The notes below the pieces were generated by a model. That model was given only the letters and a program-made list of their open reading frames with translations. It was not told the origin of the DNA and ran no database searches. Positions 4,980 through 28,558 of a DNA stretch of 32,000 nt are shown here, piece after piece. Within the stretch, counting starts at the first letter, position 1; the number at the start of each line of letters is the position of its first letter. The stretch comes from Candidatus Caldarchaeales archaeon. Its GTDB lineage: Archaea; Thermoproteota; Nitrososphaeria_A; Caldarchaeales; Calditenuaceae. Where the stretch lies: assembly GCA_032249095.1 (NCBI GenBank), contig JAVVGN010000001.1:1-32000 (forward strand), given 5' to 3'. The position numbers and the translations under genes were made by a program.

Positions 4980-5084
4980 GGGCAAGTTCGTCGAGTGCCC
5001 AAACTCTTATAAGTGAGTGTTGAGCCGCGAGTTCCTTAAACTCAAATCCCTAGTAGTAACGTTGTGAAGTTCTTGAGGGAGTTT

Positions 5085-5465
5085 CTAGATTAAGATTACA
5101 TTTCTTCTATGTTGTTTGGCGATCTCGGCTTGCTTGACGTCTGCCGTCACGAGCTTGTTGGAGCTGACTATGTAGAGGGAGTCGTAGATCGTTAGATTGG
5201 TCGCTATCGCGGTCTCGAATGCCTGCTCTAAGAATTTCTTGAAGTCGATGATTATGAGCGTCTCTGAAAGTTCCTTGAGCTCCTCAAATCTTTCCTGTGC
5301 CTCCTGCGTGGAGAGCATTTCTCTCTTATGATACTTCAGGATTACGTTTGCCACCTCCAGTATGGCTAGGTCGAGTGTCTCGCCATCGGCTTCTACTTCC
5401 TTGGCTGCCTCGACGTAGTTTTCCCCGCGCATTATCAGCTTCGCTATAACTGATGCGTCAATCAC
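5085..5465 (-). CDS. vapC: PIN-domain toxin (VapC-type)
   Basis: The acidic PIN residues are at the expected spacing: MIDASV, LAILEVANV, TIYDSLYIV, LVTADV. The ORF is 126 aa, overlaps the upstream antitoxin ORF by 8 nt, and lies in an AT-richer region. Confidence 0.8.
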   Translation of the reverse strand: MIDASVIAKLIMRGENYVEAAKEVEADGETLDLAILEVANVILKYHKREMLSTQEAQERFEELKELSETLIIIDFKKFLEQAFETAIATNLTIYDSLYIVSSNKLVTADVKQAEIAKQHRRNVILI

Positions 5466-5685
5466 CTTCTCTGTCCTCCCTTATGGCCGCTACAACAGAA
5501 CCTCTTGGAAGAATTTCTCGAGGTTTCTTCTCCAGTATCTTACGTATGACGCCTGATCTCTCAGCTTTTCTGATTCTCTCCTCGACGAAGGCCCTCAGCT
5601 CTGCAGGCCAGTCGACGACGTCCTTTAGCTTCTCGTACTTCTCCTTTACCTCTTTGGGGACCTTAAAGCTTATGACTCCACTCAT
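5458..5685 (-). CDS. vapB: VapB-type antitoxin (small DNA-binding protein)
   Basis: A 75-aa ORF immediately upstream of and overlapping vapC. It has a beta-strand-like N-terminus (ISFKVPKEVKEKYEKL) and a charged C-terminal tail. The ATG lies 28 nt downstream of a TATA box. Confidence 0.6.
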   Translation of the reverse strand: MSGVISFKVPKEVKEKYEKLKDVVDWPAELRAFVEERIRKAERSGVIRKILEKKPREILPRGSVVAAIREDREGD

Positions 5686-5699
5686 CGGTATTCTAATTA

Positions 5700-5729
5700 G
5701 TAAACCAAGATATAAACTAATTGGTTTAC
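5700..5729 (-). promoter_or_regulatory. vapBC promoter with a palindromic operator
   Basis: A perfect 9-bp inverted repeat, GTAAACCAA (5700-5708) and TTGGTTTAC (5721-5729), brackets the TATA box (TTTATAT on the minus strand, 5710-5716). Confidence 0.5.
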
Positions 5730-6404
5730 CGAGTGTAGCCGTAGATAGCAGTTCCTAAATAGATAGACTTGAATAGACCTGACCTCTTCTCCGCCCTAAA
5801 GAGCGAGGGTTCCCGCTAAAGCAGGGAGGTTTGATATTACATCCCTCTTCTTGAGAGGTTAATCCTGGCTGGGTCTCCAGCCCGTTACCCTATCCCATTT
5901 GGGACTCAGGGTTATGAGTATGTTATATGCTCTCACCAAGTCCGCATTGAAGTCTTTGTCTAGCTTTGTGCACTTGAATAATCCACGTGTAATCCTTCAC
6001 ACCTGAACCGGTTGAAGAGGACACATCTATATAGTTTTTTTCTTCTTATGTCTATTAAGGAGGAGGGAGGGGATTCGGGAGATTGAGTGGGCGAGCATTG
6101 AGGTACTATGCTGATGTTCATAGAGAGACATGGAACGGAGAGGGCTTCAGGATAACATACACTACTGACGGTGTCTCCTTCAAGCATGTTGATGGGTAGT
6201 GTCCGGATAAGGGGTTTATATGGCTAGAGGGGGTGTTGTAAACCGCTAAATCTGGAAAACATCTATCCTTGAGGGTATTTAAAGTCTTATCGGGACACTA
6301 TCTGTTGATGGCTAGAAAACTATATCAAGAGAACCACTAGAAGACCTACCCCTCCCCCCAACCATTTCCCAAACATCCCCACAATTATCATCTAACCAAA
6401 AATA

Positions 6405-6478
6405 CGGGCCCGGAGGGATTTGAACCCTCGACCTACCGGTTAAGAGCCGGCCGCTCTACCTGCCTGAGCTACGGGCCC
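6405..6478 (-). tRNA. tRNA-Lys(CUU), intron-less
   Basis: The reverse complement reads GGGCCCG UA GCUC AGGCAGGUA GAGC G GCCGG CUCUUAA CCGGU AGGUC GAGGG UUCAAAU CCCUC CGGGCCC G, a full cloverleaf with anticodon CUU. A T5 run lies downstream. Confidence 0.95.
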
Positions 6479-6502
6479 GGATCAATCAACCCCGCCGGGC
6501 GA

Positions 6503-12617: not shown

Positions 12618-12986
12618 GTGGTCAGGTACGTGAGGGATAGGTCGCTTGAGGAGTATGTCAGGAGGCTTGGCGAGGAGGCTGGGCTGAGGCACATCGACTA
12701 CTCTAGGGTGAGGTGTGTTAGGAGCTTCGGCAGCAGGTCAAGGTCGGTCGCGGCGAGGATCCATGCAGCCAGCCGGGCACTATACACTGGGCTGGGTATC
12801 AGGCCCGTCTACGTTATCGAGTTTGTCTCGGAGGTCTTTGAAAAGCTAACAAGACGCGAGAGGGACCGCGTCGTACTCCACGAGCTTCTCCACATACCGG
12901 CCTCGATGGGCGGTGGCCTAGTTGGGCACGGAGCGCTCGACTTCGAGGAGGAGGTGGAGAGGCTTGAGAGGAGGATCAGCCGGTGA
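12618..12986 (+). CDS. Putative small zinc metallopeptidase (HExxH)
   Basis: Motif VVLHELLHIP in a 122-aa protein. GTG 12618 lies 28 nt downstream of GATAAATT (12586-12593). Family assignment is tentative. Confidence 0.5.
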   Translation: MVRYVRDRSLEEYVRRLGEEAGLRHIDYSRVRCVRSFGSRSRSVAARIHAASRALYTGLGIRPVYVIEFVSEVFEKLTRRERDRVVLHELLHIPASMGGGLVGHGALDFEEEVERLERRISR

Positions 12987-13647
12987 GGCCGATGACTGTG
13001 CAGGGAGCGCTGTCAACCTCCTCCAGCATCAGGGGCGCGACTATGACGAGCCGGTACTCGCTCGGCTTTCCGGCGAGGTCCATGTCCTCAAGTATGAGGA
13101 CGCCATCCCCAGAGAGGAGGATTCGGTGCGACTCGCGCCCCTCCTCCCTCCTAGCAGGCGTCGAGATGCTGACCGCGTCTATACCTATGGCTCTCAGGCG
13201 GGGGCTGAAGCTTTTGATGAGCCTCGCCGCCGAGGGTGCGAGGAGCGGGCCCTCCTCCGCATAGGCCCTCGGGTCGCTCTCCCTGTGGCGCTGGACGCCG
13301 GTCCTAATCATAACCATGCTGTACGCCTTGAAGGCATCCCTATGGGGCTCGAGGTCCTCGCCCGTGATGGCCCCGCCCAGCTCCTTCGGAACATCGATGA
13401 TGATGGCTCCATGGAAGACGAGCTCCTCGGGACCGTATTCCGAGATCTTTCTGCCGTATGGGATGAAGTGGTTGGGTGCGTCGACGTGGGTTCCCGTGTG
13501 GTTGGCCAGAGTGATGATCCAGGAGTTGCTGGAGTCGCCCCTCGAGAGGCTTTTGTGGGGCTTAAACTCCGGCTGAGGCGTCCCCGGATATAGGGGCGTA
13601 TTACGTCCGATCCTGTGGGAGAGTAGGACGGCCCGCACCGCTCCCAT
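12976..13647 (-). CDS. Cyclase-family metal-dependent hydrolase (kynurenine formamidase-like)
   Basis: The hallmark HTGTHVDAPNHF (HxGTHxDxPxH) is present in a 223-aa ORF. Confidence 0.8.
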   Translation of the reverse strand: MGAVRAVLLSHRIGRNTPLYPGTPQPEFKPHKSLSRGDSSNSWIITLANHTGTHVDAPNHFIPYGRKISEYGPEELVFHGAIIIDVPKELGGAITGEDLEPHRDAFKAYSMVMIRTGVQRHRESDPRAYAEEGPLLAPSAARLIKSFSPRLRAIGIDAVSISTPARREEGRESHRILLSGDGVLILEDMDLAGKPSEYRLVIVAPLMLEEVDSAPCTVIGLTG

Positions 13648-13740
13648 AGACCCGCCCTCCAGCTATAGGATCCTGATATGAATGTTACCTAGGGTGGGGG
13701 GAAAGGTATATTGAGGGTCCAGGCTCCTCGTGGTGGTGGA

Positions 13741-14775
13741 TTGAGGGAGATAAGCCTGGGCTACTGGGTGGCGCAGGAGCAGTATCCGCCGGACAGGCTG
13801 CTAGACCTGGCCGTCCACGCCTTTGTGGTGGGGTTCGACACCATAGTTACGAGCGACCACTTCCACCCTTGGCGGGACAACGGCGGCCACGCGGCGCACC
13901 CATGGATCTGGCTCGCGGCAGTGGCTGAGAGGCTTAAGGACGCGGAGATCGGGACGGCCGTCACTACACCACTCTTCAGGTACCACCCGGCAATTGTTGC
14001 CCAGGCCTTCGCGACGCTGGACTACCTCTATCCCGGGCGGGTCTTCCTAACGGTCGGAGTGGGCCACGCGATGAACGAGGTCCCGCTGGGGTTCCAGTGG
14101 CCGGGATATAAGGAGAAGGTGGAGAGGCTTAGGGAGGCGATCGAGATAATCAAGCTCCTCTGGAATGGAGACTTCGTCGACTATGAGGGCAAGTACTACA
14201 GGCTTGTGAAGGCGAAGCTCTACACGAAGCCCAAGGGAAATATCAAGCTCTACGTCGCGACCGCCGACAGGAAGGTCGCCGAGATCGCGGGCATGTATAC
14301 CGACGGCATACTCACGAACCCGCGCGGGCTGGAGAGCTACGGCGAGGTGGTGAGGGCCCTAGAGGAGGGCGCGAGGAAGGCGGGGCGCGACCCCTCGGGC
14401 CTCAGCAAGTGTATGGAGTTTAAGGTCTCATATGACCCGGACTACCAGCGTGCTCTGCAGGCGGCTTACTTCTGGGCGCCCACAGCGATACCGAGGGAGA
14501 AGAGGGAGAGGGTGGCTGATCCGAGGGAGCTTGAGGCCATGGTCGGCGAGGAGGAGCTTGAGAAGATCAAGAGGACTTGGCTGATAACAAGCGACTCGGA
14601 CGACATATACAGGGCCCTCGGCGAGTTTCTGAAGCTCGGGTTCGACAGAGTCTTCATCCACAGCTCCTCCCCAGACGAGGAAAAGTTCCTCAACCTCCTC
14701 GGCCGAGAGATCCTACCCTGGGTCAGGGAATACTATCAGAGCCTAAGGATACCGATCCGTGTCTCCTCAGAGTGA
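13741..14775 (+). CDS. LLM-class F420-dependent oxidoreductase of the glucose-6-phosphate dehydrogenase (FGD) family
   Basis: Motifs SDHFHPW, TPLFRYHPAIVAQAFATLDYLYPGRVFLTVGVGHAMNE, YDPD and FWAP are collinear with my recollection of mycobacterial FGD1 along the whole length. I prefer TTG 13741 (MREISLGYWV), which lies 32 nt downstream of GTATATT (13706-12). The ORF-track TTG 13711 overlaps that TATA. Confidence 0.75.
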   Translation: MREISLGYWVAQEQYPPDRLLDLAVHAFVVGFDTIVTSDHFHPWRDNGGHAAHPWIWLAAVAERLKDAEIGTAVTTPLFRYHPAIVAQAFATLDYLYPGRVFLTVGVGHAMNEVPLGFQWPGYKEKVERLREAIEIIKLLWNGDFVDYEGKYYRLVKAKLYTKPKGNIKLYVATADRKVAEIAGMYTDGILTNPRGLESYGEVVRALEEGARKAGRDPSGLSKCMEFKVSYDPDYQRALQAAYFWAPTAIPREKRERVADPRELEAMVGEEELEKIKRTWLITSDSDDIYRALGEFLKLGFDRVFIHSSSPDEEKFLNLLGREILPWVREYYQSLRIPIRVSSE

Positions 14776-14781
14776 GGGGCC

Positions 14782-15117
14782 GTGCCCATCACCTTTTACG
14801 GCCACCGCAGGTGCAGGACTTGCATGAGAGTCAAGGAGGCCTACGATGCCGCGGGGGTCGAGTACGTCTTCATCGACATATTGAGGGAGCAGCCTAGCGC
14901 CGAGCAGCTTAGAAGGCTGGTCGAGAGGTACGGGCCCGAGGGCGTGGTGAGGGGACGGAAAAGGGAGGCGTCCAAGGCCTACAGGGCTCGGGGCCTCGAG
15001 GGACTCCTCAAGCTCATCCGCTCCGATCCGCGGATATTGGTGAGGCCGATCGTCGTGAGGGACGGCGAGGTCTTTGCCGGCGAGGAGGCTAGGGCTCTCG
15101 CTGCCAAGAGGGGGTAA
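14782..15117 (+). CDS. ArsC/Spx/YffB-family thioredoxin-fold protein with a CxxC motif
   Basis: The N-terminus ITFYGHRRCRTCMRVKEAY fits the family pattern (Y-G-x3-C-x2-C-x-K-A), and the C-terminus contains LVRPIVV. It starts 6 nt after the LLM gene stop. Confidence 0.65.
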   Translation: MPITFYGHRRCRTCMRVKEAYDAAGVEYVFIDILREQPSAEQLRRLVERYGPEGVVRGRKREASKAYRARGLEGLLKLIRSDPRILVRPIVVRDGEVFAGEEARALAAKRG

Positions 15118-15167
15118 ATGGGTGATGTGGGCTGGGAGAATGTGACGTAGGCGTCTTCGGCCTCGGC

Positions 15168-16541
15168 GTGATGGGGGAGGGCCTAGCACTGAACCTGGAG
15201 AGCAGGGGGATGAGGGTCGCGGTTTACAACAGGACGGCCGAGAAGGTCGTGAAGTTTCTAAGGGAGAGGGCGGCGGGCAGGGCGATAGAAGGCTACACGG
15301 ACCTGCGGAGTTTCGTCTCCTCCCTCAAGAGGCCGAGGCTTATTCTGCTCCTCGTCAAGGCCGGGCCCCCTGTCGACGAGGCGCTGGAAGCTCTAGCCTC
15401 GGCTGGCCTGGAGAGGGGAGACATCGTGGCTGACTGCGGCAACTCCCACTACAGGGATTCAGACAGGAGGATGGTCGAGGCCGCATCTAGGGGATACCGA
15501 TTCCTAGGCGTCGGCGTGAGCGGTGGCGTCGAGGGGGCACTGAGGGGGCCCTCGATGATGTTTGGTGGAGACTTCTCGGCCTACGTCGAGGCGGAGAGAC
15601 TTCTGGGCAGGGCCGCCGCCGTCTACGAGTCCTCTCGCTGCACCGGCTACTTCGGGGATGGCGGTGGTGGCCACTTCGTCAAGATAGTCCACAACGGGAT
15701 CGAGTACGCCATCCTCCAGGCCATCGCGGAGTCCTACGACTATCTTAGGAGAGGACTGGGCATGGGAGCCCAGGAGGCGGCTGGTGTCTTCGAGGAGTGG
15801 AGCCGCGGAGAGCTCAGGTCCTTCCTAGTCGAGGCGGCCGCTAAAGTCTTAAGACATATGGACCCCGAGTCCGGGAGACCTCTGGTCGAGATGATCGTGG
15901 ACGAGGCCGAGCAGAAGGGGACCGGGGTCTGGGCCGTAGAGGCCTCCGCGGAGTTCGGCGCCCCTGCACCAACAATCTGCGAGGCCGTCCAGCACAGGCT
16001 TATCTCGACGAGGAGAGACTTGAGGAGCAGGCTATCGGCCTCCGGAAGGGCGGGTGGAGGGGTCGTCGGCGCATCGCTCTCGCCCGAGGATGTCGGGCCG
16101 GCGCTTCTCGCAACGGTAATCCTCTCCTATGCGCAGGGGGCCGGCCTCCTCGATAGTGGGGCGAGGCGCTACGGCTTCAGGGTCTCAGAGGCCTTCAGGG
16201 TCTGGAGGGCGGGCTGCATAATACGTTCTCGGATAGTTGAGGAGACCTTTGAGTCGCTCTTCCACGGTGGAGGCGAGGCGGCCGTCCAGATCCTCGCCGA
16301 TAGGCAGGGCCAGCTCGAGGCCCTCCTCCCACGCCTAGCCGCCTTCGTAAGCGACGCGGCCAGGATCGGACTCCCCGCACCCGCAGCCTCGAGCGCCCTC
16401 TCCTACTACGTCGCCCTCAGATCCGAGAGGCTCCCCGCCAACCTCATCCAGGCCATCCGCGACTACTTCGGGGCCCACGGCTTCAAGCTGGAGGGCAGGG
16501 AGGGCGTCTTCCACTCAGACTGGGGCGCGCGGGCTGGGTGA
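15168..16541 (+). CDS. gnd: 6-phosphogluconate dehydrogenase (decarboxylating); coordinates start at the first in-frame GTG, but the conserved N-terminus begins at about 15132-15144
   Basis: Motifs GVGVSGGVEGALRGPSMMFGG, HFVKIVHNGIEYAILQAIAESY and RDYFGAHGF. In-frame upstream codons encode DVGVFGLGV, the Rossmann beta1 strand and the first Gly of GxGxxG. They are preceded only by a CTG at 15132. Confidence 0.9.
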   Translation: MMGEGLALNLESRGMRVAVYNRTAEKVVKFLRERAAGRAIEGYTDLRSFVSSLKRPRLILLLVKAGPPVDEALEALASAGLERGDIVADCGNSHYRDSDRRMVEAASRGYRFLGVGVSGGVEGALRGPSMMFGGDFSAYVEAERLLGRAAAVYESSRCTGYFGDGGGGHFVKIVHNGIEYAILQAIAESYDYLRRGLGMGAQEAAGVFEEWSRGELRSFLVEAAAKVLRHMDPESGRPLVEMIVDEAEQKGTGVWAVEASAEFGAPAPTICEAVQHRLISTRRDLRSRLSASGRAGGGVVGASLSPEDVGPALLATVILSYAQGAGLLDSGARRYGFRVSEAFRVWRAGCIIRSRIVEETFESLFHGGGEAAVQILADRQGQLEALLPRLAAFVSDAARIGLPAPAASSALSYYVALRSERLPANLIQAIRDYFGAHGFKLEGREGVFHSDWGARAG

Positions 16542-17521
16542 CCCTGATGGAGATCTGGCTCCGTTGGGGAGGGACAAGCGTCTCCTTCGAGGCGCCGGAG
16601 GAGCTGTTGATCAGAGAGCTGAAGCACGAGACCATACCTCAAAGCCACTACCAGGCGCTTCTAGGCGAGGCACTCTCAGGGCTCGGAGACCCCACTGTGG
16701 TGATCGACTACCACCCACCGGCCTCAGGACTCGGGCCGATTCTCGAGCTTCTCAGGGAGAAGACCGGCCGCGTATACGTCTCGCTGTGGCGCGTCCCACC
16801 CGCCATGAGGGGCGCGGAGCTGGAAGCCCTCATGGGGCTGGGGGTAGAAGCCGTCCCCCTAAGCGAGCTGGCCCAGGATACCCGCGAAGTCCTCCTGATC
16901 TGCCACCACACCACAAGGCCCCTGCTGTGGGGGTTCTCGGACCAGCCTGCAGATCTCTTCGTCCAGCTTGCGAGGATGGAGGGGCTTGACGCCCCCAAAG
17001 CCGCGAGGGTCAGCATCCTCGAAACCGGGTACGACTCCGAAGGCACCCCCACGGAGACCTCTCCGGCCAGGCCGTCCTACGCGCCCGACTCCGTCGTTGT
17101 CTCCGCAGGCGGCTCTCCCTACGACTCGACTCTATACACGGCGCTCCAGGCCCTGATCCTAGCGTCTAAGGCCTGTAGGGAGGGGGGGACGGTCCTGCTA
17201 GCGGCCGAGTGTGCGGAGGGTCTGGGGTCACCCCGCCTGGCCCTGGCCCTCTACGAGTCGATGGGCGGGTCGGCAGACGGCTCCGAGCCCTGGCCGGAGC
17301 TGGTCCTAGCCCGGAGGTTTAGGGAGGTGGTTGGCAGCCGCAGAGTATACCTAGCGACCAGCCTGCCGAGAAGCATCACCCAGAGCCTCCTAGGCGTGAA
17401 AAGCCTCGACACTCTCCAGGAGGGGTTCTCCCAGCTTCTGAGGATCCACAGCAGGGAGCACAGGTCCGCCCTAATCGCCGAGGGGCTCCACACCTACGCC
17501 CTCCTCCCCGAGACCCAGTAG
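16538..17521 (+). CDS. Divergent LarA-like (DUF2088-like) protein, function unknown
   Basis: SAGGSPYDSTLYTALQALILASKACREGGTVLLAAECAEGLGS resembles the LarA-family C-terminal core. The N-terminal pattern LRWGGTSVSFEAPEELL is also LarA-like. The regions corresponding to the LarA DxTRP and AxGxHR motifs read DYHPP and LWRVPP. The GTG start overlaps the gnd stop (GTGA). Confidence 0.4.
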   Translation: MTLMEIWLRWGGTSVSFEAPEELLIRELKHETIPQSHYQALLGEALSGLGDPTVVIDYHPPASGLGPILELLREKTGRVYVSLWRVPPAMRGAELEALMGLGVEAVPLSELAQDTREVLLICHHTTRPLLWGFSDQPADLFVQLARMEGLDAPKAARVSILETGYDSEGTPTETSPARPSYAPDSVVVSAGGSPYDSTLYTALQALILASKACREGGTVLLAAECAEGLGSPRLALALYESMGGSADGSEPWPELVLARRFREVVGSRRVYLATSLPRSITQSLLGVKSLDTLQEGFSQLLRIHSREHRSALIAEGLHTYALLPETQ

Positions 17522-17529
17522 CCGATTGA

Positions 17530-18690
17530 CTATATTCGCAACAGGTTTAGTAGGGGGCTGGGTAGGACGACGAAGGTCACGACCGCCAGCGCCACGACAC
17601 CTATCATGGCGACCCTCCTCATCTTTGAGAGGGGCGAGACCATGTCTAGGGGAGGGAAGTCGATCGGGTTCATCATGAAGAGGAGCAGCATGAGGGAGAA
17701 GTAGTAGTAGCCCGTTACGAAGAGCAGGAGCACCGTGGCGTAGGATAGGATCCTATAGGTCCTGAAGCTTGTCAGGCTTCTGAAGATCCGTCCACCGTCC
17801 AGCTGCCAGGCGGGCAGGAGGTTCAGGCTGGTCACTACCATCCCCAGCCAAGCCGCGAACCCCACAGCCGGAAAGACCGGGACCACGTCGCCCCCAGGGC
17901 TGAATAAAAGGCCCATCAGTTGGAAGACGAGTGGTGAGGGAAGCATCGTGACAGCTCCCTCCTCGGCCATCCTCATTATGACGCTCCGCTCGACCCACTG
18001 GGCCTGGCTGAAGGCGATCCAGATCACTACGAGGCCTGCGAGGAATCCGGCAACCGGGCCGCTCACGCCTAGGTCGAAGAGGTCGTCCCTATTCCTCACT
18101 GGCCCCCTCTGGAAGATTACGGCCCCGAAGGTGGGGATTAAGCCAGGTATCCCGGGAATGAAGTAGGGGAGGCTGGAGGCGATAGAGTCGTGGCGGGCGG
18201 AGATCTTGTGACCGAGCTCGTGTATCCCTATGATCGTCATGATGCCCACTGTGTAGAGCAGGGCTTCCACGAGCCCCCCACCGGCAAGCGCCCTACCGCC
18301 AAGGAGGCCCGACCTTATTGCTCCATCCAAAAAGATCGTTGTGAGCGTGGCCAGGAATAGGACTAGGGGCCAGGGGCTCCGCCGTGTCTGGGGCTGGCTG
18401 TAGGGAAAGACCCTCAGTTCCACCTGCCCGCCCACCTCTACGGCTGCGGGGACGAAGCCTATACGTGTAAGCTCATAGTAGACCTCCCTGAAACGCTCCT
18501 TAATGTCCCTTGTGAGCAACCTGAAGGTCAGGACCCCCTCGACGTAGGCAACCTCCTTCACGGGAAGCCTGGACCTGACGATTCCCCCAATTGTCTCCAG
18601 CCTTTCGCCGTAACTCTCTGGCCCAAGCATCGAAAACCACTTAGGCAATCTGTACGCACACGGCGCCGGTAAAAAACCCTTGTCCACCAA
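17530..18690 (-). CDS. M50 family site-2 protease (zinc metalloprotease)
   Basis: HELGHKISARH (HExxH in a TM segment) and NLLPAWQLDGGRIF (NxxPxxxLDG). The protein is polytopic. The start is either TTG 18690 or ATG 18630. Confidence 0.85.
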   Translation of the reverse strand: MVDKGFLPAPCAYRLPKWFSMLGPESYGERLETIGGIVRSRLPVKEVAYVEGVLTFRLLTRDIKERFREVYYELTRIGFVPAAVEVGGQVELRVFPYSQPQTRRSPWPLVLFLATLTTIFLDGAIRSGLLGGRALAGGGLVEALLYTVGIMTIIGIHELGHKISARHDSIASSLPYFIPGIPGLIPTFGAVIFQRGPVRNRDDLFDLGVSGPVAGFLAGLVVIWIAFSQAQWVERSVIMRMAEEGAVTMLPSPLVFQLMGLLFSPGGDVVPVFPAVGFAAWLGMVVTSLNLLPAWQLDGGRIFRSLTSFRTYRILSYATVLLLFVTGYYYFSLMLLLFMMNPIDFPPLDMVSPLSKMRRVAMIGVVALAVVTFVVLPSPLLNLLRI

Positions 18691-24809: not shown

Positions 24810-25470
24810 GGCTTATGATACTGGTCTCTTGTTGGCTAGCTTGGATTATTTCTTGGACTTGATGGCCTTTGACTCTAGGTTTGACTAGGTTTGAGAGGTC
24901 TTCTAGGCCTTTGTCTTAAAGGAGGTTTGTAAGGCTAGCCTGAGTATGCTGAGAGCCTATCCCAGACACACCTAGGTGTCAGGATCCCTGAGTCAACACT
25001 GCATTACTGGGAGGTTAGGCATGGGGAGGTGTTAAAGATTCTTCTCAGGCTGCTGAGCCTCATGGACTACGACTACTCAGTGATAGACTCAACGAGGTTT
25101 ACGGATTGGCTTAAGAGTCTGCATGAACTATTCATCGATGTTAGGGTGAGAAGCGGCGAGACGTTACTCCCAGTCCACGTCCAGCCTACGGGCTCCGAGG
25201 TGGAGTTCGTTGAAGGGATACCTGAGGTGGAGGGGCAATTCTTGGAGATGGAGCATTCAATGCGAAACCCATCCTAAACACCATAAGCATCTAAGGGATA
25301 CATACCCATAGTGAAGAAGGGCTCGAGAAGCCCTAGGGTATGGAGCGAGGATTAAGGTTAGAGCATACGATGAAGCTTCATATCCCTATAGGAGTGTCGG
25401 TGAAGGATATTGGAAGCACTAATAGTAGGGTGCGGAGACAGACTGAAAAACGAGGAGGGAGGAGTCAAGG
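24810..25470 (+). mobile_element. Degenerate IS remnant (DDE transposase of IS4/IS5 type, multiply frameshifted and truncated)
   Basis: The open frame at 24939-25277 encodes ..LGVRIPESTLHYWEVRHGEVLKILLRLLSLMDYDYSVIDSTRFTDW.. This is an HTH segment (IP-x-STL-x-W) followed by the first catalytic-Asp motif (iDSTxf) of DDE_Tnp_1 transposases. Upstream N-terminal-like pieces and a downstream piece (..KVRAYDEASY..) lie in other frames. The region is AT-richer. I could not define terminal inverted repeats. Confidence 0.45.
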
Positions 25471-25614
25471 AGGACAAGAACACACCTAAGGATTATAATA
25501 TGCTGCCTAAAAATCCTTGTGAGGTGGGCTTGCGAGTAGCTGGACACGCCCATTTGGCATTCTCAATAGTAATCATATTTATATAATAAAATGATGATAT
25601 ATTAATAGGAACTT

Positions 25615-26997
25615 TTGAGGATAATAGGTAGTTTAGGTGGGAGGGCTGCAAAAATAGTTTATAGCTTTGGAAACATGGGACAATCACTTATCTTTCATTC
25701 AATAGGAACGTACTTAATGTATTTCTACATAGATGTGGTCGGTCTCGACCCCACACTTATAGGAACCGGGTTCTTGTTATCATATGGGGTTTGGAATTCC
25801 ATAAATGACCCAATCGCCGGCTATATTTCTGATCGTACACGAACAAGATGGGGGCGCAGGATACCATTCATACTTTATTGCACGCCACTCATGATGATGC
25901 TTTTCATTCTAGTCTGGTCCCCGCCCGTCGGAAAAACATTCGATGCCATTGCAATATTCTTGTACTTTGTCTTTGTTGTTGCAATCTTTGAGTTCTTCTA
26001 CACTCTTGCTAGCGTAGGCTAGGACGCCTTTGATCCTGAGATGTTTCAAGATCTTAAGGAGCGGGCAGAGGTATCCGCCTATAGACAATACACTGCCATG
26101 ATGGGGATAATTGTAGGCTTCGTTCTAACCCCGCCTCTTATCTCATATCTTAACGAGAGGTTTGGCAACCGCGCCGGATGGACAATGACGGGGGCGATTC
26201 TATCTAGCGTAGGAGGAGGTGCATTCCTCACTTCGCTGCTGGGGTGCAGAGAGAGGAAGGAGTATGCCATGGCTGGTGTACTTCCACTTACCCAAGCAAT
26301 GAGAATAACCCTCACAAACAGATCCTTCATTACAGCTGCTCTGTGCCTCCTTATGACAAGCTGGATCTGGAGCTTTCTCTCGGCTCTAAGCCCGTTTCTT
26401 GTTACCTACATGCTTAGGGGTAGCATCGCTGATATTACCCTCATGTCGGCCCCTCTAATTTTGTCCACAGCGGCATGTTATCCGCTTTGGCGGAAAATCT
26501 GTATCCGTATGGGTACAAAACGTGCATACATAATCGCAACATCTTTATCTGTCTCTTTTCTCTTGCCACTTATTCTACTAGCGGATTCTATTCTGACGGC
26601 CGGCGTGATAATGGTCTTCTATGGATTCGCGAACTCAGGAGCGACTCTTGTGAGGGATATCACGATCGCCGATGTAATAGATGAAGATGAGCTTAGGACA
26701 GGTCTTAGGAGGGAAGGCGTATACCTAGGTTCTCGCACCTTCGTAGACAGATTTGCACTCGCCCTTACAGGAGCAAGTACAGCTCTCGTCTTCAACGTAA
26801 CAGGTTTCGTCCCAAGCGCCAACCAACCAGCAAGCACAATCACGAATATGAGGGTCGCCTCAGCCTCAATTCTAGTTGTAGCTCTGATAGGATTCCTTAC
26901 GTCCATCAAGTATTATCCTTTAGGAGCAACCCGCGTTGCTGAGATAAGGGAGATGTTAAAAGAGGCTCGCCAAGCAAGATGGGGTAGCCATACATAG
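25615..26997 (+). pseudogene. GPH-family (glycoside-pentoside-hexuronide:cation symporter, MelB/YicJ-like) transporter interrupted by one in-frame TAG
   Basis: The GPH signature NSINDPIAGYISDRTRTRWGRRIPF is present. ORFs 25615-26022 and 26041-26997 are in the same frame, separated only by TAG 26020-26022. That stop falls at the conserved aromatic position before ..DPEM..D..ER. Composition is AT-richer than the surroundings. Confidence 0.75.
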
Positions 26998-27127
26998 CTT
27001 AACCGGAACAAATGAGAGATCCTCTGTCTCTAACGGTTGACGCCATCTAGACACGTGAAGAACCTTATCTTGGCAAAAGGGGATACAGCATGAATGAAGT
27101 AATAGAGTAGTAGTTTGTCTGAGTTGA

Positions 27128-27210
27128 GGACCCCGGGGTAAGCCTCCGAGCCGCCTGCAGCGGCGGGAAGATGGCAGCCCCAGCGGGGGGTTCAGGGAAC
27201 AATCGTATCC
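27128..27210 (+). ncRNA. Candidate structured sRNA (H/ACA-like features, unconfirmed)
   Basis: A GC-rich island inside AT-rich spacer. A 7-bp closing stem pairs GGACCCC (27128-34) with GGGGUUC (27187-93). An internal hairpin pairs CCGCC with GGCGG, and GA-rich internal loops are present. ACA lies at 27199-27201 and T5 at 27211-15. A TATA-like AAGTAATAGAG (27097-27107) is centred 26 nt upstream. Confidence 0.3.
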
Positions 27211-27598
27211 TTTTTGGTAGTCAAGTCTAATGCTCTTAACGGCTAGCATAGCGTGGTGGCAGAACCTTTATATCCAATTCAGGAGGAGACTGTGCGAGAG
27301 GTTTTGACTTGAAAAAACTCCATTCCCGAGCGAGTATATTTTGACGACCGTCTTTGCCCCACTACTTGCGAGTCTTCTACTGATCCCGCCGGCACTCGGC
27401 CCACATGCCCAGCCCTCGTTGAGGGATAGGGCGAGGGGTGGTCTTCGAGATAGAAGGCGTCGTCTATGTTGATGAGGGGGAGAGTTGGTTAAGGTGCTGG
27501 GGAGTAGCGTCTAGGTTCCGGAAAAACACAAAAACCCGAGACTTGATCTTGACGGAGCCTACGTACTCTGCCTTCTCAAGCGGTGGAGACTCTATATC

Positions 27599-28558
27599 TT
27601 GGAGTGCCGCCTTCCCTCCGGTGAAGTGTGGGGAGAGGCTGTTCTCGGGGGCTGGCACAGGGTTATTTTCGGCGACTCGAGGAGCATGAGGGAGGTTAAG
27701 GACGGGAGTGTTCACCTGGTAGTCACGTCTCCGCCCTACCCCATGATTGAGCTCTGGGACAAGCAGTTCCGGGCACTAGATAAGCGTATAGACGCACTAT
27801 GGGTCCAGATGGAGGATGAAAGGGACGAGTGGGAGAGAGCCTGCATAGCTTCCCGAATATATGATCTGATGCATGAGAACCTCGCGAAGACTTGGGGTGA
27901 GGTCTACAGGGTCCTCGTTGATGGTGGGATAGCCTGCATAAACGTCGGAGACGCATTAAGGAGCGTCGGCGGCATCTTCCAGCTCTTTCCAAACCACGCG
28001 AGGATTCTCGAGGAGTGTAGGCGGATAGGCCTCACGGCGCTCCCCTACATCCTCTGGAAGAAGCCTACGACCAAGCCTAAGTATAAGGGGAAGGGGGCCT
28101 TCCTGGGCTCCGGCTTCCTGCCGCCCAACGCCTACATCACGCTAGACTGCGAGTACATACTGATCTTCAGGAAGGGGCGTCCGAGGGAGTTCAGCCCCCG
28201 CGACCCACTCAGGTACGCGAGCAGATACAGCAAGGAGGAGAGAGACACCTGGTTCACACAGATATGGGAGATACGTGGGGCGAGGCAGGCGCTCACAGAG
28301 CTGGAGCGGAGGGCAGCGGCCTTCCCGGAGGAGATACCGAGACGCCTAATCCGCATGTTCTCGATAATCGGCGACACCGTCCTAGACCCGTTCCTAGGCA
28401 CCGGCACCACCGTCAAGGTAGCGATGGAGCTGAAGAGAAACAGCATCGGCTACGAAATCGACGAGGCCTTCAGGCCCGTAGTCGAGTCGAAGATAAGACC
28501 AGTCCATCGCCGTCTCCAGGATAGCACGAAGGTAGAGCTCCTCAGGAGAGGCTTGTGA
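27599..28558 (+). CDS. Beta-class DNA methyltransferase (N4-cytosine or N6-adenine)
   Basis: Motif IV, VHLVVTSPPYP, lies near the N-terminus, and motif I, VLDPFLGTGTT, lies near the C-terminus (PF01555-type order). The likely start is GTG 27626, 32 nt downstream of TCTATAT (27591-97). The ORF-track TTG 27599 abuts that TATA. Confidence 0.85.
   Translation: MECRLPSGEVWGEAVLGGWHRVIFGDSRSMREVKDGSVHLVVTSPPYPMIELWDKQFRALDKRIDALWVQMEDERDEWERACIASRIYDLMHENLAKTWGEVYRVLVDGGIACINVGDALRSVGGIFQLFPNHARILEECRRIGLTALPYILWKKPTTKPKYKGKGAFLGSGFLPPNAYITLDCEYILIFRKGRPREFSPRDPLRYASRYSKEERDTWFTQIWEIRGARQALTELERRAAAFPEEIPRRLIRMFSIIGDTVLDPFLGTGTTVKVAMELKRNSIGYEIDEAFRPVVESKIRPVHRRLQDSTKVELLRRGL

Follow-up and report, generated by a model that had tools for sequence, protein, structure and literature searches.

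Introduction

Archaea are usually said to lack the pentose-phosphate pathway's oxidative branch, and to our knowledge the only biochemically proven exception is the haloarchaeal enzyme of the short-chain dehydrogenase/reductase (SDR) type. Here we analyse a stretch of 32,000 nucleotides from a hot-spring Candidatus Caldarchaeales ('Aigarchaeota') archaeon (contig JAVVGN010000001.1, hereafter the window), in which four open reading frames (ORFs) lie on the + strand at 13741-17521, between a cyclase gene and an M50 peptidase gene. They encode a luciferase-like protein related to the F420-dependent dehydrogenase of glucose 6-phosphate (FGD; gene 1), a small CxxC protein (gene 2), 6-phosphogluconate dehydrogenase (6PGDH; gene 3, gnd), and a shortened LarA homologue (gene 4). 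We lean towards the view that the locus serves an oxidative pentose-phosphate branch linked to F420, in which gene 1 is predicted to encode the hexose-6-phosphate dehydrogenase. The haloarchaeal route resembles this proposal in leading from glucose 6-phosphate (G6P) to ribulose 5-phosphate in archaea through a non-canonical glucose-6-phosphate dehydrogenase (G6PDH) and Gnd (Pickl & Schoenheit 2015; PMC8506132), but its first enzyme is a non-homologous, NAD+-dependent SDR protein, and F420 is not used (PMC8506132).

The closest characterised enzymes are FGD1 and Rh-FGD1, which share with gene 1 the luciferase-like fold, collinearity over the full length at about 41% identity, the residues Glu13, His40, and Trp44, and basic residues at the positions of Lys198 and Lys259. 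Rh-FGD1 has gnd and a gene for a G6P isomerase at its flanks (Nguyen et al., PMC5352752), an arrangement similar to the gene neighbourhoods of the clade that contains gene 1, called the His109 clade below. Gene 1 differs from FGD in scoring below the equivalog cut-off, in belonging to a separate archaeal clade, in its invariant histidine at position 109, in the lack of Arg283 (with an invariant lysine two residues upstream), and in its thermophilic archaeal host.

Two further enzymes are informative for comparison. The F420-dependent sugar-6-phosphate dehydrogenase (FSD) of Cryptosporangium arvum is 37% identical to FGD1 and is active on G6P, with some activity on fructose 6-phosphate and mannose 6-phosphate (Mascotti et al. 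2018, PMC6279831; PMC12384609). As this enzyme is about as far from FGD1 as gene 1 is and yet active on G6P, such divergence is compatible with the function proposed for gene 1. Unlike gene 1, FSDs are bacterial, belong to the FGD/FSD clade, keep Glu109, and, judged by the pattern of the actinobacterial/Chloroflexi clade, have a Lys/Lys/Arg pocket. The F420-dependent secondary alcohol dehydrogenase Adf from Methanoculleus thermophilus (1RHC) is archaeal like gene 1, has the same His/Trp/Glu13 core at 37% identity, and falls on the same side of a neighbour-joining (NJ) tree, but it carries Glu109, lacks a basic residue where FGD has Lys198, uses alcohols that are small and uncharged, and has no known genetic link to sugar phosphates.

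A pathway like the one considered here was proposed earlier for a member of the same group. According to the passages of Beam et al. 2016 (PMC4681859) that deal with it, 'Candidatus Calditenuis aerorheumensis' has an F420-using G6PDH, a 6PGDH, and F420 biosynthesis, so that its oxidative pentose-phosphate pathway lacks only the lactonase; in those passages the statement is made at the level of annotation, with no analysis of clade, residues, or gene order and no lactonase candidates. Fgd is listed with the entry 'Thaumarchaeota?' by Grinter & Greening 2021 (PMC8498797), according to whom no F420 function in the TACK archaea has been shown experimentally; up to 12 'FGD' copies were reported in Gagatemarchaeum (Sheridan et al. 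2023, PMC10640624), and G6PDH and 6PGDH were reported in Thaumarchaeota (PMC8506132). The IMG database names the gene 1 protein cluster F420-dependent G6PDH. An earlier annotation of this DNA made from the sequence alone (the original prediction) had presented the operon as an undescribed pathway variant; in view of the prior genome papers, the IMG name, and the flanks of Rh-FGD1, the pathway idea thus re-discovers a claim already made at the level of annotation.

What is new here is the recognition that gene 1 belongs to a clade of its own, in which the acid residue and the phosphate pocket are altered, and that a protein with two SIS domains (double-SIS) is the core partner of the luciferase-like gene 1 protein and its orthologues (collectively LLM). 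We also find that the link between LLM and gnd survives rearrangements within the Caldarchaeales, that gnd of the window species has CTG at its start position, and that candidates exist for the missing steps, namely the double-SIS isomerase and, as lactonase, a hydrolase of family PF04199.

Family and active-site residues of gene 1

Gene 1 (13741..14775, + strand) begins with TTG and encodes a protein identical to GenBank MDT7914979.1. It is a TIM-barrel luciferase-like protein (PF00296, 5e-51) that passes the F420_G6P_family model TIGR03557 with 230.4 bits against a cut-off of 210.4. Its best NCBIfam model, which outscores every other LLM model, is TIGR03554 (FGD, EC 1.1.98.2), at 306.5 bits under an equivalog cut-off of 420. 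The closest solved relatives are the FGD1 structures 3b4y and 5lxe (M. tuberculosis and R. jostii, 1e-86), followed by Adf (1rhc, 2e-73), with identities of 41% to M. tuberculosis FGD1 over the full length and 37% to Adf. All the motifs quoted in the original prediction (SDHFHPW, FRYHPAIVAQAFATL, YDPD, FWAP, and GVGHAMNE) are present in gene 1.

Residues were compared among 17 members of the His109 clade. The Glu13/His40 dyad and Trp44 are aligned and invariant. Position 109 is histidine in 17/17 (GHAMNE), so that the substitution noticed originally in gene 1 is a property of the whole clade; FGD, the actinobacterial/Chloroflexi sequences of the FGD clade, Adf, fHMAD, and 9hav all have glutamate there, and in FGD this residue is the acid that protonates N1 of F420 (PMC12384609). 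The positions of Lys198 and Lys259 are occupied by invariant arginines, likewise in 17/17 (TNPRG, PREKRE). The basic residues had been thought to sit near, but not at, the phosphate-binding positions of FGD1; at 198 and 259 they sit exactly there, and only for the third position, 283, does the doubt stand, as no basic residue is conserved there. At 283 the clade has Thr or Ser, and R, K, E, or D occurs at 282. The residue of Rh-FGD1 that corresponds to Arg283 is Arg282, whose exchange (R282Q) nearly abolishes activity (PMC5352752). An invariant Lys281 (x-I-K-x-[TS]-W), two residues upstream of 283, might speculatively substitute for Arg283.

To place gene 1, 96 sequences were aligned (relatives found at 80 loci of GTDB genomes, further homologues from databases, and five enzymes of solved structure), and a tree was built by the NJ method, a crude one, with Kimura distances and 100 bootstrap replicates. 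The His109 clade received 100% bootstrap support and the FGD/FSD clade (actinobacterial/Chloroflexi/Dormibacterota) 99%, and the two formed an exclusive group in 0/100 replicates. Instead, the His109 clade lies within a large group of archaeal sequences on the side of the tree where Adf falls. The placement with FGD that profile and phylogeny had been expected to decide was thus not obtained, and the collinearity with FGD seen at the outset holds for the family over its full length but does not extend to orthology. From the sequence comparisons, gene 1 is best regarded as a broad-sense member of the FGD family, since its 41% identity to FGD1 is no lower than the 37% of the C. arvum enzyme, and not as an FGD orthologue, because it scores below the cut-off, belongs to a separate clade, has His for Glu109, and lacks a conserved equivalent of Arg283.

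The His109 clade is tight, with identities of at least 60%, and comprises sequences from Caldarchaeales, Bathyarchaeia, Conexivisphaerales, Geothermarchaeales, and a few contigs binned as Acidobacteriota. The latter are short contigs (L010, which is DASQZS010000134 'Candidatus Acidoferrum sp.', and P0045, P0050, and P0351) that carry His109-clade LLM and double-SIS genes, 67-69% identical to the archaeal ones; they are either mis-binned archaeal contigs or the result of a recent transfer.

Gene neighbourhoods in relatives

The neighbourhoods of LLM genes were examined in loci of relatives (L-numbers), taken from scans of genome contigs and metagenome contigs; all counts refer to samples of loci, not to censuses, and lineage counts are therefore minima. 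In at least eight Caldarchaeales lineages, gnd lies within 6 kb of the LLM gene (window, L001, L089, L090, L098, L099, L101, and L102). The order found in the window (cyclase | LLM, ArsC-like, gnd, LarA-like | M50) recurs in L001-4, where LLM and Gnd are 89% and 74% identical to those of the window, and in L101 (86% and 61%). The other arrangements differ: L089 and L090 carry the gnd/LarA-like pair on the opposite strand, about 1.2 kb away from the LLM gene and separated from it by the cyclase gene; in L098 and L102 the pair lies downstream, past SIS, cyclase, and metallopeptidase genes; and in L099 gnd is 5.6 kb from the LLM gene. Conservation of the four-gene order, proposed at the outset as a check, is thus seen in L001-4 and L101, with gnd within 6 kb in five more lineages, but the operon itself is confined to a subgroup.

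Among the loci listed, the commonest partner of LLM is a convergent gene for a double-SIS protein of 381-387 amino acids, found across Caldarchaeales, Bathyarchaeia, and Conexivisphaerales (L005-7, L009-12, L014, L016, L089-92, L098-100, and L102-103; for example at 6040-7197 in L089, 7066-8223 in L005, and 7578-8720 in L009). Its C-terminal half is nearest to 6-phospho-3-hexuloisomerase (TIGR03127, 79-91 bits, below the cut-off; 9lj9, 3e-13), and an AlphaFold model with a pLDDT of 85 matches the isomerase domain of GlmS, archaeal glucosamine-6-phosphate deaminase, and structures resembling tagatose-6-phosphate isomerase. On the strength of this model, the conserved neighbour of LLM is a protein that resembles phosphosugar isomerases. 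Its N-terminal half was also considered as a 3-hexulose-6-phosphate synthase, and this was ruled out, as the bifunctional HxlAB model covers only the 6-phospho-3-hexuloisomerase half and the fold is a double SIS. No double-SIS gene was found in the 32-kb window, where the ArsC-like, gnd, and LarA-like genes occupy its place.

Two loci extend the association to other contexts. In a Nitrososphaera sp. contig (L030, DAIUEZ010000098, 1591-5401), one strand carries genes for an LLM of the FGD family, RpiA, a cyclase of family PF04199, a small cupin, and a Gnd of the short type, and L024 and L130 carry partial copies of this operon. The LLM of L030 is without all three basic residues of the pocket; the operon therefore appears to support a pathway link of LLM to pentose-phosphate genes but not a common binding mode. 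An unrelated metagenome contig (L106, FWPU01007204.1, 2378-9515) has a row of genes for an SDR protein, a cyclase of family PF04199, LarA in full length with its Lar_N domain, Gnd (487 aa), and a gluconolactonase of the SMP-30 type, and the association of cyclase, LarA, and gnd therefore recurs outside the Aigarchaeota.

A proposed F420-linked pathway and its alternatives

Gene identities, the placement of gene 1 in family and clade, its residue pattern, and the linkage that relatives conserve are shown above; from them we infer the following scheme for the substrate, the use of F420, and the lactonase step. Gene 1 would act as an F420-dependent LLM dehydrogenase that oxidises a hexose 6-phosphate, most likely G6P, at C1, yielding the 6-phospho-lactone and F420H2. 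The lactone would open spontaneously at high temperature or through the divergently encoded PF04199 metal hydrolase, after which Gnd would decarboxylate 6-phosphogluconate to ribulose 5-phosphate with formation of NADPH. Accessory roles would fall to the CxxC protein and to the shortened LarA homologue.

Several lines of evidence speak for this F420-linked branch, to which we give somewhat more than even credence. Gene 1 is homologous to FGD1 over its full length, more closely (41%) than the characterised C. arvum enzyme (37%), and FGD is its best model; the invariant Glu13/His40/Trp44 set and the arginines at the Lys198 and Lys259 positions point in the same direction. The linkage of LLM to gnd has outlasted rearrangements in the Caldarchaeales, and the double-SIS neighbour together with gnd mirrors the flanks of Rh-FGD1 (PMC5352752). 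The L030 operon suggests an independent link between LLM and the pentose-phosphate pathway, and gnd shows signs of purifying selection (see below). The same pathway was inferred for Calditenuis, together with F420 biosynthesis, in the relevant passages of the genome paper (PMC4681859).

Other observations weigh against it. To those already described for gene 1 (the score under the equivalog cut-off, His at position 109, the absence of a conserved Arg283, the failure to group with FGD/FSD, and the position on the Adf side of the tree) are added the missing basic residues in the LLM of L030 and the restricted distribution of the gnd linkage: among the loci listed, no gnd was found within 6 kb of the LLM gene in Caldarchaeum (L005-7, L100), in L013-15 and L091-92, in any Bathyarchaeia locus, or in Conexivisphaerales. 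Among the window ORFs, which were scanned with Pfam and NCBIfam, no F420-biosynthesis gene (cofC/D/E/G/H) was found, within 32 kb only, and no recognised lactonase either; the statement in the original prediction that a recognisable 6-phosphogluconolactonase is missing holds for the Pgl/DevB and SMP-30 types. The true SMP-30 lactonase in L106 weakens the argument for the cyclase as lactonase, and gnd of the window species is without a canonical start codon.

The alternative that survives best, though we consider it rather unlikely, is that LLM and the double-SIS protein form a real pair that acts on another phosphosugar, such as mannose 6-phosphate, fructose 6-phosphate, glucosamine 6-phosphate, or 3-hexulose 6-phosphate, or that works reductively with F420H2. 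The nearness of gnd would then reflect a general hexose- and pentose-phosphate neighbourhood, and in the window lineage the SIS gene would have been replaced through an inversion that brought gnd beside gene 1. This would fit the far wider conservation of the LLM/SIS pair than of the LLM/gnd pair, the closeness of the SIS C-domain to 6-phospho-3-hexuloisomerase, the acceptance of several sugar 6-phosphates by FSDs (PMC12384609), and the combination of His109 with the missing Arg283, which suggests a different active-site chemistry or binding mode. However, gnd has stayed within 6 kb in at least eight Caldarchaeales lineages despite several rearrangements, arginines are retained at the Lys198 and Lys259 positions together with the dyad for C1 oxidation, and any aldose-6-phosphate dehydrogenase product but 6-phosphogluconolactone would have to pass through a further step before Gnd could use it.

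A dehydrogenase for a non-sugar alcohol or another metabolite, either F420-dependent or an FMN revertant and comparable to Adf or hydroxymycolate dehydrogenase, with a gnd adjacency that has no pathway meaning, appears improbable. In its favour, Adf is closer to the clade than FGD is in the NJ tree, the identities to Adf (37%) and FGD1 (41%) are close, the FMN-dependent revertant family TIGR03885 gives 235 bits on gene 1, and the 'FGD' paralogues of thaumarchaeal genomes, up to 12 in number, cannot all be G6PDHs (PMC10640624). Against this, Adf has no basic residue at the Lys198 position whereas the clade has invariant arginines at 198 and 259, phosphosugar neighbours recur (gnd, double-SIS, and RpiA in a related clade), and the FGD model scores above every other LLM model.

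The F420-linked version of the oxidative branch has been asserted for Aigarchaeota and Thaumarchaeota by genome papers purely from automatic 'FGD' annotation. Our findings indicate that this annotation rests on a non-orthologue, which belongs to another clade, has another acid residue, and lacks the most critical phosphate-binding arginine; conserved neighbourhoods nevertheless tie LLM to hexose- and pentose-phosphate metabolism. If the proposed activity is confirmed, gene 1 would encode the first F420-reducing sugar-phosphate dehydrogenase from archaea; this would account for the charging of the F420 pool in non-methanogenic thermophilic archaea and would supply a thermostable enzyme for F420 regeneration. 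If the activity is refuted, the widely propagated KEGG annotation K15510 in Nitrososphaerota needs correction.

The gnd gene and its start codon

Gene 3 (15132..16541, + strand) encodes a decarboxylating 6PGDH of the NADP type. The confident assignment made at the outset is borne out by two equivalog models, both passed above cut-off (TIGR00873, 462 bits against 427; NF006765, 487 bits against 413), and the NRT motif after beta2 is typical of NADP-dependent enzymes. The 6PGDH of the oxidative branch is thus present and intact, with an ORF uninterrupted over 470 codons.

The start of this gene is unusual. In the gnd frame, the stop codon TGA at 15123-15125 is followed by no ATG, GTG, or TTG until the GTG at 15168, which sits within the Rossmann motif GxGxxG. 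Ungapped codon comparison aligns the CTG at 15132 with the start codons of relatives, and in 7/7 relatives examined the codon at this position is ATG or TTG. It is TTG in L001 (TTG-GCT-GGC-TGC-GAT-GTC) and L089 (TTG-GGA-GAG-GTC), where the window reads CTG-GGA-GAA-TGT-GAC-GTA, and ATG in L090, L098, L101, and L102, where it is as far from the (D/E)(V/I)G strand as the CTG of the window is. From CTG 15132, the gap to gene 2 is 14 nt, compared with 13 nt in L001. A putative Shine-Dalgarno-like element, GGTGAT, lies at 15121..15126 (+), 5 nt upstream of this CTG. We presume this element to be complementary to the 3' end of archaeal 16S rRNA. Public gene callers give a truncated gnd product of 456 aa.

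Two technical explanations were ruled out. An assembly error at the junction was dismissed, as five metagenome assemblies that are independent of one another (JGI contigs) have the same junction sequence. A frameshift, suggested by a 4-nt gap or insertion in a MAFFT alignment, was dismissed by the ungapped comparison with L001, L089, L090, L098, L101, and L102, which shows a change from TTG or ATG to CTG. The same five contigs, which are strain-level and 99.75-99.9% identical overall, were used to study polymorphism within the species. Within gnd, 6/6 polymorphic sites are synonymous, an outcome with a chance of about 4 in 10,000 under neutrality if about 27% of sites are assumed to be synonymous. 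This indicates that gnd is under purifying selection and therefore presumably translated, and expression from the non-canonical start CTG 15132 seems to be the explanation most in keeping with the codon comparison.

The least probable alternative, and in our opinion a very doubtful one, is that the pathway is decaying in the window species, with gnd poorly or not translated and the oxidative branch non-working after the change from TTG to CTG: the lack of any in-frame ATG, GTG, or TTG upstream of GxGxxG, the ATG or TTG in all seven relatives, and the truncated product of the gene callers would fit it, but the intact ORF, the purely synonymous polymorphism, and the Shine-Dalgarno-like GGTGAT speak against it.

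Accessory genes and candidates for the missing steps

Divergently from gene 1, a gene at 12976..13647 (- strand) encodes a metal hydrolase of the PF04199 'cyclase' family (Pfam Cyclase, 3e-24), in which the metal motif HxGTHxDxPxH is intact (NHTGTHVDAPNHF). It adjoins the LLM gene in the window and in L001, L005, L013, L089, L090, L092, L098, L100, L101, L102, and L103, as well as in the Nitrososphaera loci L030 and L024. Among the members of family PF04199 are an esterase, a trans-dienelactone hydrolase, and a phosphotriesterase that hydrolyses lactones (PMC5341072, PMC12135135); because the family holds esterase and lactone-hydrolysing members, a role as 6-phosphogluconolactonase is chemically plausible, and we regard the hydrolase as a candidate for this step. 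A small metallopeptidase-like gene (SprT/'PhageMetallopep', 12618-12986) overlaps the end of the cyclase gene and is found beside it also in L001, L089, L090, and L098.

Gene 2 (14782..15117, + strand) encodes a small thioredoxin-fold protein that resembles ArsC, Spx, and glutaredoxin, with the CxxC motif CRTC at residues 11-14. The Spx/ArsC-like character first assigned to it is backed by this motif and by a borderline PF03960 score (24.4 bits against a cut-off of 24), with 23.7 bits for PF00462, but not by TIGR01617, where it reaches 43 bits against 75. A similar CxxC gene follows the LLM gene in L001, L015, and L101.

Gene 4 (16547..17521, + strand) encodes a LarA-family homologue of 324 aa. 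It resembles the nickel-pincer lactate/2-hydroxyacid racemases LarA (5HUQ) and Mar2 (6D6Z) in the C-terminal domain, and its first strand, xWLxxGxxExxFxxPxE, resembles the LarA N-terminus. LarA_C is its only Pfam match (5e-07, 30 bits) and Lar_N was not detected; a profile of its family matches the C-terminal domain of Mar2 (6d6z) at 3e-24. Compared with LarA, it falls short by about 90 residues, which appear as a deletion in an hhalign alignment to LarA-like proteins (100% probability), and it reaches 39.6 bits on NF033504, whose cut-off is 460. Its N-terminal half contains no invariant His or Lys in a family alignment of 14 sequences, including at the LarA sites, and the region that faces the LarA segment 'pH..aG.sGG' in the hhalign alignment reads RPLLWGFSDQPAD. 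We take LarA His108, His174, Lys184, and His200 (5HUQ numbering) to comprise the cofactor-tethering Lys, the Ni-binding His, and two catalytic His. The LarA likeness first noted is therefore real for the C-domain but does not extend to the cofactor and catalytic residues of the N-domain, and, judged by its shorter N-terminal half without invariant His or Lys, gene 4 cannot belong to the known kind of nickel-pincer racemase.

The gene 4 family is rare, with 35 proteins at E<=1e-10 in an exhaustive HMMER census of 1.84 billion representatives (a word-indexed search gave only 4 proteins). In the Caldarchaeales loci listed, a gene 4 homologue always follows gnd. Gene 4 evolves faster than its neighbours, with 54% identity to L001 compared with 89% for LLM, and 3/3 of its polymorphic sites within the species are non-synonymous. 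An AlphaFold model made from a 5-sequence alignment (pLDDT 56, pTM 0.45) was too poor for a fold search.

Taken together, these genes suggest a more speculative extension, which we think unlikely to hold in full: Nitrososphaerota (Aigarchaeota/Thaumarchaeota) may have assembled a complete, non-canonical F420-linked oxidative pentose-phosphate route from recruited parts. The double-SIS isomerase may supply an aldose 6-phosphate. This may be oxidised by the F420 dehydrogenase of the His109 type, which forms an independent lineage of the FGD family in archaea. The PF04199 hydrolase would be the long-missing 6-phosphogluconolactonase, and the degenerate LarA-family protein would work with Gnd, for example as a partner that binds or epimerises a 2-hydroxyacid (6-phosphoaldonate). 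For these last two parts the support is circumstantial and comes from the cyclase/LarA/gnd trio of L106 and from the L030 operon.

Layout of the locus and other features of the window

The tight packing of four genes on one strand, on which the original prediction was built, was found as described, and an ENA contig is 100% identical to the locus over 7 kb. The gap of 6 nt between genes 1 and 2 was measured again, but the other two junctions were revised. The TAA-ATG that had been read as a 0-nt gap before gnd exists at 15115-15120, but this ATG is out of the gnd frame: it opens a frame of only nine codons (15118..15147, +) that overlaps the gnd start and is closed by TAG at 15145-15147, as seen in six-frame translation. 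The GTGA that suggested an overlap of 4 nt between gnd and gene 4 is present at 16538-16541, but the start of gene 4 is most likely ATG 16547, because all gene 4 homologues begin with MEIWL or MEYWL, which would give a gap of +5 rather than -4 nt. The revised gaps of 6, 14, and 5 nt are compatible with one transcript, and we infer co-transcription. A TATA-like sequence, GGTATATT, at 13705..13712 (+), 29 nt upstream of the gene 1 TTG, is a possible archaeal promoter element, and the M50 peptidase gene (17530-18690, - strand) is convergent to gene 4.

The 32-kb window yielded no genes of the ribulose monophosphate pathway and no RNA features relevant to the cluster, and its one tRNA is a tRNA-Lys at 6404-6479. 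Elsewhere in the window, two stretches have a low G+C content compared with about 0.6 around them: 5001-6000 (0.46), which adjoins the tRNA-Lys(CTT) at 6404-6479, and 25001-28558 (0.445), located beside an MFS_2 transporter ORF that covers profile positions 128-425 only (26041-26997) and an N6/N4 DNA methylase gene (27599-28558). Both may be foreign or degraded DNA. At 424-2295, a fusion protein of 623 aa combines a MobA-like nucleotidyltransferase domain with a CDP-alcohol phosphatidyltransferase domain, and presumably resembles the bifunctional IPCT/DIPPS that makes di-myo-inositol phosphate in hyperthermophiles.

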